Of a stretch of DNA of 42,479 bases, positions 25,259 through 42,479 are shown one piece after another. The notes beneath the pieces are model-generated. The model had not been told where the DNA came from and ran no database searches. It saw only the letters and a list, made by a program, of their open reading frames with translations. Position 1 is the stretch's first letter; every line of letters starts with the position of its first letter. Source of the stretch: a virus (lineage: Duplodnaviria; Heunggongvirae; Uroviricota; Caudoviricetes); IMG/VR virus record IMGVR_UViG_2939127364_000002; one strand, written 5' to 3'. The position numbers were made by a program, and so were the translations under genes.

Positions 25259-25279
25259 GGTCGTTAATGATTTTACCCA

Positions 25280-25300
25280 CCCGCCGCTGGCGGGTTTTTT
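25280..25300 (+). terminator. Intrinsic terminator-like hairpin upstream of the major tail gene
   Basis: Stem cccgcc/ggcggg with 3-nt loop followed by TTTTTTATTTT. Confidence 0.5.
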
Positions 25301-25317
25301 ATTTTCAGGAGACGAGT

Positions 25318-26022
25318 ATGTCCTCTAATTTTGAACGTTCTCAGCAGACCAAAGTCATGATCTCGTCTGCACCGGTAACGGCAGAAACGCTGAGTTCTGC
25401 CAGTTTTCTTGAACTGAGCTGTACGATTAAAGAGGTTCAGTTTACCGCCGGGCAGAAACAGGATATTGATGTCACTACGCTGTGTTCTACCGAGCAGGAG
25501 AATATCAACGGTTTTGGGGCTGCTTCAGAGATTTCCATGTCAGGAAACTTTTATCTCAACGCTGCCCAGAACGCGTTGCGTAGTGCTTATGACAACGACA
25601 CCACATACGGTTTCAAAGTTATTTTCCCGTCAGGAAATGGATTTACCTTTATGGCAGAAGTTCGCCAGCATACCTGGTCTGTGGGAACCAACGGTGTTGT
25701 TGCTGCCACATTTTCCCTGCGCCTGAAAGGAAAGCCCTCTCTGACCACTGAACCTTTGAAACTCCTCTCTGATTTGAAAAGTACACTACAGGTTTCTGCC
25801 AGTGAAACGCTGAATATGTCTGTTGAGGCATCAGGTGGTGTGCCTCCTTATTCATATGTCTGGAAGAAAGGCAGCTCTCCAGTTTCCGGGCAGACATCGG
25901 CAACTTTCAACAAGGCCTCCGTGACATCCGGTGATGCCGGTGCGTATACCTGCGAGATTTCTGATTCAGCAAGCCCTGTTAACAAGGTGACCTCCACTTC
26001 CTGCACTGTTACCGTCAGTTAA
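25318..26022 (+). CDS. Major tail protein with C-terminal Ig-like domain
   Basis: Start placed at ATG 25318 (AGGAG RBS) because the track start 25267 runs through the terminator hairpin; C-terminal ...PPYSYVWKKGSSPVSGQ... Ig-like segment. Confidence 0.85.
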   Translation: MSSNFERSQQTKVMISSAPVTAETLSSASFLELSCTIKEVQFTAGQKQDIDVTTLCSTEQENINGFGAASEISMSGNFYLNAAQNALRSAYDNDTTYGFKVIFPSGNGFTFMAEVRQHTWSVGTNGVVAATFSLRLKGKPSLTTEPLKLLSDLKSTLQVSASETLNMSVEASGGVPPYSYVWKKGSSPVSGQTSATFNKASVTSGDAGAYTCEISDSASPVNKVTSTSCTVTVS

Positions 26023-40077: not shown

Positions 40078-41235
40078 CTATGACACCTTCTCATCAAGCC
40101 AATCCGCCCACCACTGCATCATTTCTCTGCGCTTATCGAGATACTGAGCATGGTTGTAAATTCCACGTACAGATCCGCCGTTGGCATGTGCCAGTTGCAC
40201 TTCAATGGCGTCGGCAGGCCATTCGTGCTCGTTCATAATCGTGCTGAATTCATGCCTGAATCCGTGACCGCTTTCCAGACCTTCATAGCCGATTTGTTTG
40301 ATCACAAGCAATACCGCGTTCTCGCAGATTGGCTTCTTCTTATCGTTGCGCCCGGCAAAAACAAACTCTGAGACTGGTTTGGTGATTGAGCTTAGCGTAG
40401 TGAGAAGTTCAACCACCTGGTCTGACATCGGGACCACATGAATTTTGCGTCCCTTCATCACACTGGCGTCGATGGTGATAATCCTGTTTTCAAAATCGAC
40501 GTTCTTCCATAGCATGGAACGAAGCTCTTTCGTTCTTAGGGCTGTATAACGTAAAACTTTTGTCGCAATGAGCGATACGATACTTCCTGAAAATGTTGCC
40601 AGTGCTTTGTTGAATGCAGGGATCTGGTCTGCTGGAAGGAACGGGAAGTTCTTCTTGCGGTATCCCTTCATGGCGTCAGCAAGGTCAGGTGCCGGGTTAT
40701 ATTTAGCCCTACCAGTGACAATAGCGTAACGGAAAACCTCGCCGCATCTTCTGCGGGCTTTGTTGGCTCGCTCCATTGCACCGCGATCTTCAAATCTGCG
40801 GATTACTTCCAGCAGTTGCATCGGCTCAATATCCTGAATTTCAAGGCCGCCGATGATGGGTAAAATGTCGTCATCAAACATTTTTGCAAGTTCATTTGCA
40901 TAGCCTACTGACCAGACTTGCTTCTTGTGCTCGTACCATTCCTTGTAAATGGCGCTAAAGGAATTGTTGTTAGACGAAGTCTTTTTCGCTTTTACCGGAT
41001 CGATACCAACCGAGATGTCTTTCCTCGCGGTCCATGCTTTATCCCTTGCCTCCTGCAAAGTCATAAGCGGATATTTTCCGACGGTCAGGATTTTCTCCTT
41101 ACCGTCAATCTTGTAGCGAAGCTGCCATACCTTTTTCCCGGATACAGGAACATAAAGGTACAGGCCATTACCATCGAGAAGGCGGTATGGTTTTTCTTTC
41201 GGCTTTGCTGCTTCAATCTGCTTAACGGTGAGCAT
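40078..41235 (-). CDS. intS: Tyrosine integrase, IntS-like
   Basis: MLTVKQIEAAKPKEKPYRLLDGNGLYLYV... recognised as the CPS-53/KplE1 integrase; start placed at ATG 41235 rather than track start 41271; adjacent to argW. Confidence 0.9.
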   Translation of the reverse strand: MLTVKQIEAAKPKEKPYRLLDGNGLYLYVPVSGKKVWQLRYKIDGKEKILTVGKYPLMTLQEARDKAWTARKDISVGIDPVKAKKTSSNNNSFSAIYKEWYEHKKQVWSVGYANELAKMFDDDILPIIGGLEIQDIEPMQLLEVIRRFEDRGAMERANKARRRCGEVFRYAIVTGRAKYNPAPDLADAMKGYRKKNFPFLPADQIPAFNKALATFSGSIVSLIATKVLRYTALRTKELRSMLWKNVDFENRIITIDASVMKGRKIHVVPMSDQVVELLTTLSSITKPVSEFVFAGRNDKKKPICENAVLLVIKQIGYEGLESGHGFRHEFSTIMNEHEWPADAIEVQLAHANGGSVRGIYNHAQYLDKRREMMQWWADWLDEKVS

Positions 41236-41281
41236 GGGTAAAAATCCGGTGGGTAAAATTATTTTATCCACTTTTTACCCG
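41236..41281. promoter_or_regulatory. Cluster of GGGTAAAA / TTTTACCC 8-mers upstream of intS (candidate recombination-protein binding sites)
   Basis: GGGTAAAA at 41236..41243 and 41251..41258, inverted TTTTACCC at 41273..41280. Confidence 0.35.
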
Positions 41282-41396
41282 TCATGGAGTGCGGCTGTCA
41301 ACGATCTGACGCGAACCATGACGAACCGTGAATATACGGAAGGCTTGATATTCAGGGGATTTTGCGGACTGGTACGGATGGGAGCGAACTGATAAA

Positions 41397-41471
41397 TGGT
41401 GTCCCCTGCAGGAATCGAACCTGCAATTAGCCCTTAGGAGGGGCTCGTTATATCCATTTAACTAAGAGGAC
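41397..41471 (-). tRNA. argW: tRNA-Arg (anticodon CCU)
   Basis: 75-nt cloverleaf GTCCTCTTAGTTAAATGGATATAACGAGCCCCTCCTAAGGGCTAATTGCAGGTTCGATTCCTGCAGGGGACACCA with anticodon CCT and encoded CCA. Confidence 0.9.
41411..41426. repeat. att core copy within the argW T-arm
   Basis: Exact 16-bp match to 221..236. Confidence 0.6.
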
Positions 41472-41546: not shown

Positions 41547-42479
41547 TTATGCCGGGTTTTTATAATTTTTCTTAATGTTTTCCGCACGTTCTGCTTTTTG
41601 GCGTGCTTCTGCTTTACGCTTATTGCTCATGTCGTTACGAATCTGTGCATGACTCATTAACGCGAAGATAAAGGTGCCGCCGCAGATGTTCCCCGCTAAA
41701 GTAGGTAGTGCGAAGGGCCAGATGAAATCGCTCCAGTGCAGCGTACCGTTAAACACCAGATAGAGGATTTCAACAGAACCGACCACGATATGGGTGGTGT
41801 CACCCAGGGCAATAAGCCAGGTCATCAATATAATCACCACAATCTTTGCCGCACCCGCTGCAGGAAACATCCAAACCATAGTGGCGATCAGCCAGCCGGA
41901 AATGATCGCGTTGGCAAACATCTCGCTGGGGGTGTTTTTCATCACATCCATGCCGATTTTGACAAATGCATCGCGAGTTTCTTCATTGAAGATAGGCATA
42001 TATTCAAATGCCCACGCCGCAATACCTGTCCCGAGAATATTACCCAGCAGCACGACGCCCCATAACCGTATAAGTAAGCCGACGTTGCTCATTGTCGGTT
42101 TTTGCATGACGGGTAGTACCGCAGTCACGGTATTTTCGGTAAATAATTGCTGGCGGGCCATAATGACGATAATAAAACCAAAGGTATAACCGAGATTCTC
42201 CAGCAAGAAGCTGCCCGGCACACCTTCCAGTTCGACTTGAAATATCCCTTTTGCCAGTAACGAAGCGCCCATCGACAGACCCGCCGCAATGGCTGACCAC
42301 AGTAGCGCCACTGCGTCGCGTTCCAGCTCTTTTTCACCATCCTGGCGGATATGCTCATGAATTGCCATCGCCCGGGAGGGGAGTCGGTCTTCATCTATTT
42401 CTATTTTTTTGCCGCGCTCTTTTTCTTCGCTCTCAACTTCAATTTCGTCGCTGTGTTGATCAATTTTGTCGTTGTCCAT
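41547..42479 (-). CDS. yfdC: Inner-membrane formate/nitrite-transporter-family protein
   Basis: 310-aa ORF MDNDKIDQHSDEIEVESEEKERGKKIEIDEDR... recognised as YfdC, the gene next to argW in E. coli; its start codon is the last 3 bases of the window. Confidence 0.85.
   Translation of the reverse strand: MDNDKIDQHSDEIEVESEEKERGKKIEIDEDRLPSRAMAIHEHIRQDGEKELERDAVALLWSAIAAGLSMGASLLAKGIFQVELEGVPGSFLLENLGYTFGFIIVIMARQQLFTENTVTAVLPVMQKPTMSNVGLLIRLWGVVLLGNILGTGIAAWAFEYMPIFNEETRDAFVKIGMDVMKNTPSEMFANAIISGWLIATMVWMFPAAGAAKIVVIILMTWLIALGDTTHIVVGSVEILYLVFNGTLHWSDFIWPFALPTLAGNICGGTFIFALMSHAQIRNDMSNKRKAEARQKAERAENIKKNYKNPA

Follow-up and report, generated by a model that had tools for sequence, protein, structure and literature searches.

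Probable arm-type integrase sites within the intS promoter of a lambdoid prophage at argW

The DNA considered here, referred to below as the window, is the whole 42,479-nucleotide stretch of IMG/VR virus record IMGVR_UViG_2939127364_000002, and its gene content is that of a lambdoid siphovirus-type prophage. Matches to PHROGs identify RecT, a CI-like repressor, the large terminase and the major head protein, and positions 1-40077 also hold tail genes, among them those for a 1068-aa tape measure protein, a 1160-aa J protein and side tail fibres. The IntS module forms the right end of the prophage, and the left end, the torI/attR side, lies beyond window position 1. Flanking the module is a 310-aa ORF (41547..42479), which we take to be the host gene yfdC; its PHROGs match does not confirm this assignment.

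Within the module (Table 1), argW and intS follow one another on the minus strand with the intS promoter between them, an arrangement termed the 'STI' shape (Panis 2010). The 16-bp att core at the 3′ end of argW occurs once, and a search of the window for a second copy, as expected of attR, found none. Residues 2-86 of IntS match Pfam Arm-DNA-bind_3 (PF13356) with E = 3e-25, which gives the protein a separate N-terminal arm DNA-binding domain, and the PDB relatives 3ju0 and 3jtz are integrase N-domains.

A 160-bp spacer separates the core from the intS start codon (41235..41233, minus strand), and a cluster of short repeats lies in this spacer. An earlier note on the same DNA had described it as two direct copies and one inverted copy of an 8-mer upstream of the ATG, spanning 41236-41281. 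By pattern search, GGGTAAAA is found twice on the plus strand (sites D and C of Table 1) and its reverse complement TTTTACCC is found once, at site A. The cluster is thus real and all three copies are present, with two corrections: the true end is 41280, one base short of the span first given, and the count was too low, a fourth and degenerate copy, GGATAAAA (site B), having been missed.

Table 1. Features of the IntS module and its attachment arms (window coordinates, except where another locus is named)
Feature	Position	Strand	Description
intS, tyrosine integrase	40078..41235	-	Pfam PF13356, PF22022, PF00589
Site D, putative P'4	41236..41243	+	GGGTAAAA; TTTTACCC on the intS strand, +23..+30
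Site C, putative P'3	41251..41258	+	GGGTAAAA; TTTTACCC on the intS strand, +8..+15 of the transcript
Site B, putative P'2	41262..41269	-	degenerate GGATAAAA, 11 bp after site A
intS transcription starts T41266/A41265	41265..41266	-	primer extension in PMC2951348, coordinates transferred
-10 hexamer TAAAAA of PintS	41272..41277	-	PMC2951348; K-12-identical sequence
Site A, published P'1	41273..41280	-	GGGTAAAA(A) on the intS strand; the 'inverted' copy of the earlier note
-35 hexamer TTGACA of PintS	41296..41301	-	PMC2951348; 18-bp spacer to the -10 box; invariant in relatives
TorI (RDF) sites I3, I4, I5	41303..41330	-	CACGGTTC-gt-CATGGTTC-gc-GTCAGATC; PMC2951348 coordinates 2464472-2464499
TorI sites I1, I2	41366..41393	-	cores GTTCG, GTCCG; PMC2951348 coordinates 2464409-2464436
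att core, IntS core-type site	41396..41411	-	CTGCAGGGGACACCAT; 3′ end of argW; sequence as in PMC2951348
argW, tRNA-Arg(CCT)	41397..41471	-	integration target; located at the right end
First P-arm site, overlapping the torI/hkaC stop	L093 256-263 (K-12 attR); L001 622-630 (HK620); L011 ~1213-1235 (phiv205-1)

The clustering is non-random. When the 160-bp intS-core spacer was simulated with a first-order Markov model, any 8-mer appeared three times within 45 bp in 7 of 30,000 simulations; an over-harsh model, deliberately trained on the cluster itself, gave three copies in 45 bp in 969 of 30,000. Over the whole window and both strands there are five copies of GGGTAAAA, against 1.22 expected from dinucleotide shuffles of the window, and one shuffle in 100 reached five copies.

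Two of the five lie outside the cluster. The copy at 40858-40865 (+), inside intS at codons 124-126 (Ile-Leu-Pro), was considered as a fifth site and rejected as a chance by-product of coding; synonymous changes erase it in HK620, and also in all relatives other than E. coli, Shigella and the phages of these hosts. The stretch of HK620 homologous to this copy is marked as an 'attP' repeat in the GenBank record (L001 1245-1255). The copy at 25271-25278 (-) lies among the structural genes, at the 5′ end of a 251-aa ORF (25267..26022); isolated, with no partner copies nearby, it was taken to be due to chance.

The cluster belongs to a segment that is nearly identical to a known attachment site. 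From argW into intS, 296 of 301 bp agree with E. coli K-12 MG1655, and from the -35 box to the ATG the window is 100% identical to the KplE1/CPS-53 attL of K-12. All five substitutions fall between the core and the -35 box, at about 41310, 41327, 41330, 41334 and 41342; two or three of them affect outer bases of TorI sites I3 and I5, and none affects a GTTCG/GATCG pentamer. IntS itself is identical to its K-12 counterpart at 382 of 384 residues, and the N-terminal domains are the same. The feature is already known, and it has been experimentally characterised in K-12. The KplE1 attL was reportedly also dissected by Panis et al. in JBC in 2007 and in Virology in 2010.

The K-12 promoter PintS was described by Panis et al. 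(PLoS Genet 2010; PMC2951348), with a -35 box TTGACA, a -10 box TAaAAa and, by primer extension, transcription starts at a T and an A at 2464536/7. These positions were carried over to the window through the statement in the same paper that -223 corresponds to 2464344. The transfer is valid because the TorI block I3-5 then falls exactly on three 8-bp sites with 2-bp gaps. Counted from the A of the ATG, the starts are thereby at -31/-30, 7 nt downstream of the -10 box. All five TorI pentamers (GTTCG/GTCCG/GATCG) are found at their published positions, where they form two blocks in the interval from the core to the -35 box, and the GTTCG cores of the I3-I5 block are conserved in an alignment of relatives.

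Read on the intS strand, the cluster has the form GGGTAAAAA-gt-GGATAAAAT-a-ATTTTACCC-accgg-ATTTTTACCC-ATG. The true layout is therefore one of four sites, two direct (A and B) and two inverted (C and D), with the consensus GGGTAAA(A/T). Together they cover -15 to +30 of the intS promoter and lie 115-175 bp from the core. Site A takes in all but one of the six bases of the -10 hexamer, site B spans both mapped transcription starts, and site D abuts the ATG just downstream of an SD-like GGA. According to the published work, the arm-type P' sites of IntS all contain TAAA, P'1 overlaps the -10 box, and the plasmid table lists mutant constructs for P'1, P'2, P'3 and P'4 (PMC2951348). Between the -10 box and the ATG there are exactly four occurrences of TAAA/TTTA, one in each of sites A to D. 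The three 8-mers would therefore be P'1, P'3 and P'4, and the missed copy P'2; for sites B, C and D the assignment draws on the TAAA count and the motif and is to be read as putative.

The hexamer ACCGGA lies between sites C and D at 41245-41250 (-), and it contains the SD-like GGA, to which the Sf6 record assigns the RBS. The hexamer is kept in 16 of 20 aligned sequences that have the GGGTAAA motif, and a related CGGA is present in the sister clade. ACCGGA may be under dual constraint, as a ribosome-binding site and as a spacer between arm sites.

If the repeats are arm-type sites, related elements might be expected to carry the motif on the other side of the core as well, and the earlier note had proposed a search of the torI-proximal att region for the same 8-mer. 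Since the attR of this prophage lies beyond the window edge, the P arm was examined in relatives with an identical or near-identical module, and the outcome was positive. In the attP of both HK620 and Sf6, two direct copies of GGGTAAAAT stand beyond the core, 12 bp from one another, and the torI-proximal arms of the phiv205-1 attR and the K-12 attR each have two direct copies of GGGTAAAAT too. The P-arm copies are found where torI ends, about 80-90 bp past the core, and the first of them runs across the final sense codon of torI/hkaC and its stop codon (AAT GGG TAA). Both arm clusters therefore abut the ends of ORFs, one at the torI stop and the other at the intS start. A 135-bp attR substrate that is active in vitro begins immediately before the P-arm repeats (primer attR-IHF2, PMC3509656).

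The four P' sites are conserved across genera. We aligned 20 sequences. One is that of the window, three belong to phages of Klebsiella or Erwinia, and the remaining 16 are genomic loci (from Citrobacter, Dryocola, Pantoea, Edwardsiella, Rouxiella, Tatumella, Mixta, Xenorhabdus, Erwinia, Serratia and Rosenbergiella, and from one MAG). Across these Enterobacterales and their phages, the sites are islands of identity between variable spacers. The heptamer GGGTAAA of site A is invariant (20/20), and at the position of site B most relatives read GGGTAAA or GAGTAAA. TTTACCC of site C is found in 18 of the 20, one of the other two reading TTTACTC (L028) and the other having diverged there (L038). 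At site D, TTTTACCC directly precedes the ATG in 19 of the 20, and L038 has TTTTGACCC. Two Xenorhabdus loci have only three sites, with site D as the single inverted copy. The earlier note had also proposed a search of related argW prophages, and the four-site layout is indeed kept across about 20 distinct sequences.

A separate observation concerns Escherichia whittamii (L042), in which one inverted arm site has been lost upstream of locus position 1001 through a deletion of 15 bp between two direct TTTTACCCA repeats. Only residues 1-159 are covered by the int match here, and L042 is probably a decaying module.

In a sister clade the motif itself is different, and it differs in concert with the integrase. 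GGGTAAA is retained where the N-domain is at least 46/65 identical. Where the N-domain is 35-44/65 identical, the two direct P' positions read GGGCATA and GGGCA(C/T)A, and the ATG-proximal inverted position reads TTATGCCC, or TTGTGCCC or GGATGCCC in the two most divergent loci. The P arm has changed in the same way: at the homologous position of that arm, GGGCA(T/C)A occurs as two direct repeats in 13 distinct attP sequences of the sister clade, and core and spacing are unchanged. The clade includes Kluyvera, Serratia silvae, Izhakiella, some Pantoea and the Salmonella phage S.Inf 5-2 group, and was sampled from IMG/VR and phage attP sequences (L007, L094-L145) and from genomes (L025, L033-L036, L040, L067). 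The GTTCG/GTTCT motifs stay in place in these sequences while the arm motif changes. A motif that is present in both arms and changes with the N-domain of the integrase is characteristic of arm-type sites, not of sites for a host factor or an RDF.

We conclude that the 8-mers are very probably P'-arm binding sites of the heterobivalent tyrosine integrase IntS, within the attL of a KplE1/HK620/Sf6-type module at argW, and we put the probability of this reading at roughly 0.93. The earlier note had suggested integrase arm-type sites, and that suggestion is supported by the published experiments on identical DNA (PMC2951348), by the P-arm copies and by the co-variation with the N-domain. Binding of IntS to arm sites has been reported for the identical K-12 sequence, with JBC 2007 cited as the source (PMC2951348). 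On this reading, the N-terminal Arm-DNA-bind_3 domain of IntS would bind the arm sites and the catalytic domain would bind the core, so that the four P' sites and the two P-arm GGGTAAAAT sites could be brought together in the intasome for integration and excision.

The position of the sites suggests a second function. The overlap with the intS promoter and ribosome-binding site had been noted as something that would allow autoregulation, and the expectation is borne out by the location of P'1 on the -10 box and by the finding that IntS represses its own promoter about 5-fold, from 6368 to 1270 units (PMC2951348). Bound IntS would extend over PintS from the -10 box through the start into the leader, and might thereby exclude or trap RNA polymerase. 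We infer that autorepression works by promoter occlusion, mainly through P'1. In the published mutant analysis, single TAAA-to-ATTT mutations in P'2, P'3 or P'4 did not relieve repression (ratios of 4.0-5.2), and P'1 was inseparable from the -10 box (PMC2951348); the site or sites responsible for autoregulation are therefore not cleanly proven. TorI also represses PintS about 5-fold, acting via I4/I5, and mutation of I4/I5 abolishes this effect (PMC2951348). TorI bound at I4/I5, beside the -35 box, would then constitute a second, RDF-dependent layer of repression.

Several other explanations of the repeats can be considered. The earlier note had allowed that they might be bound by the RDF rather than by the integrase, and such a role for TorI is not unreasonable in principle: an RDF typically binds short repeats close to a core, and TorI does repress intS (PMC2951348). 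The sites of TorI are known, however. They are five in number, of the GTTCG/GATCG/GTCCG type, in two blocks that both lie upstream of the -35 box (PMC2951348), whereas the 8-mers lack any GTTCG-like pentamer and are downstream of the -35 box, outside both blocks. GGGTAAA moreover recurs in the P arm and varies with the N-domain of the integrase, which GTTCG/GTTCT does not. We therefore regard binding by TorI as very improbable. A host nucleoid protein such as IHF or Fis, with an architectural role in the intasome, would be in keeping with the AT-rich character of the region and with the usual presence of IHF or Fis sites in att arms; yet the motif switches with the N-domain of a phage integrase although the kind of host and the argW core remain the same, which would be unexpected for a host-factor site. 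The Virology paper of 2010 reportedly places one functional IHF site on attR and none on attL. This explanation, too, has very little probability in our estimation.

It could also be asked whether the repeats require a dedicated binding protein at all. They might simply be promoter and translation-initiation sequence, that is, an AT-rich -10 box, a leader and a ribosome-binding site, given that site A contains the -10 hexamer and that the 30-nt leader holds sites C and D with the conserved ACCGGA between them. Such an account does not explain the two copies in the P arm, beyond the core, and is already refuted by them; nor does it explain why GGGCA(T/C)A replaces the motif in both arms in concert, or the low chance expectation of 7 in 30,000, and we give it scarcely any weight. 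Least credible is an RNA hairpin in the intS leader that would control translation or stability. Inverted repeats do flank the transcription start and the leader, but site A is upstream of the mapped start and hence absent from the mRNA, and the two copies within the leader are direct repeats of each other and not complementary. When the leader and the first 40 coding nucleotides are folded together, the structure is no more stable than those of shuffled sequences (MFE -5.3 kcal/mol, z = 0.30).

Returning to arm-type sites for IntS, the motif switch in the sister clade is an observation, and it raises the tentative idea that argW integrases fall into two functionally orthogonal classes of arm specificity, GGGTAAA and GGGCA(T/C)A, which share the core, the spacing and the four-plus-two layout. 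We consider such functional orthogonality possible but somewhat doubtful. An implication, if it were true, is that elements competing for argW would not cross-repress one another's int promoters or cross-assemble intasomes. Comparison of the N-domains would then point to the residues of the Arm-DNA-bind_3 fold that read the motif. The switch could in any case guide specificity-swap experiments and the dissection of arm-motif recognition.

The closest known system is the KplE1 (CPS-53) attL of E. coli K-12, which has the same core, argW target, TorI blocks and promoter, and an integrase that is 99% identical; it is the same feature in another strain. KplE1 is, however, a 10-kb remnant, whereas here the KplE1-type recombination module is carried by a complete, full-length lambdoid siphovirus-type prophage of more than 41 kb. 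The attP of the lederbergviruses HK620 and Sf6 shares the core and the P' arm, in which all four sites are present. In the GenBank record of HK620, the arm-site stretches are already labelled as 'attP' repeat regions and as the 'prophage excision' promoter. HK620 and Sf6 differ from the present element in being podoviruses, and their free phage genomes also show the P arm with its two GGGTAAAAT copies, which is off the left edge here. The same IntS/attL module is found in Stx phages (VT2phi_272) as well as in these podoviruses, and such sharing illustrates the modular exchange of a recombination cassette.

Lambda Int provides another parallel. The logic is the same, in that a bivalent integrase bridges short arm repeats (P1, P2 and P'1-P'3), which are distinct from the core sequence and spread over both arms, to the core. 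The N-domain of IntS belongs to a different family (Arm-DNA-bind_3, P4-type), the motif is different, and the P' arm consists of two direct and two inverted sites. In addition, the promoter of intS lies inside the arm and drives transcription away from attL, such that arm binding amounts to autorepression, and lambda int is not regulated in this manner (PMC2951348). The satellite phage P4 offers a further parallel: its Int binds at similar positions relative to its own start and represses int (PMC2951348). The RDF of P4, Vis, also lowers Int, although Vis has been proposed to act on the mRNA and TorI acts on the DNA (PMC2951348). The P4 element and its attachment site differ from those of the IntS module.

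The principle that emerges is a restatement of a published one: when transcription of int runs outward from its own attachment arm, the sites in that arm also act as operators. The operator role keeps the integrase at a low and constant level, and excision is consequently controlled by the RDF. What the present comparison of sequences adds is modest, namely a cross-genus conservation map of the four sites and the concerted motif switch in the sister clade. For annotation, the window can be said to contain an experimentally characterised attL, in which a core can be placed along with five sites for the RDF, four arm sites for the integrase, and a promoter whose start is mapped.

Finally, a point of annotation concerns the promoter. 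A consensus scan selects ATGACG-16-AATAAT at 41258-41285 (-), which was disregarded as it is not the experimentally mapped promoter; the mapped one, TTGACA-18-TAAAAA, is about 15-16 bp upstream of the consensus pick. A consensus match alone would thus misplace PintS. The 1991 record of Sf6 (X59553, L002 127-154) also picks ATGACG-16-AATAAT.
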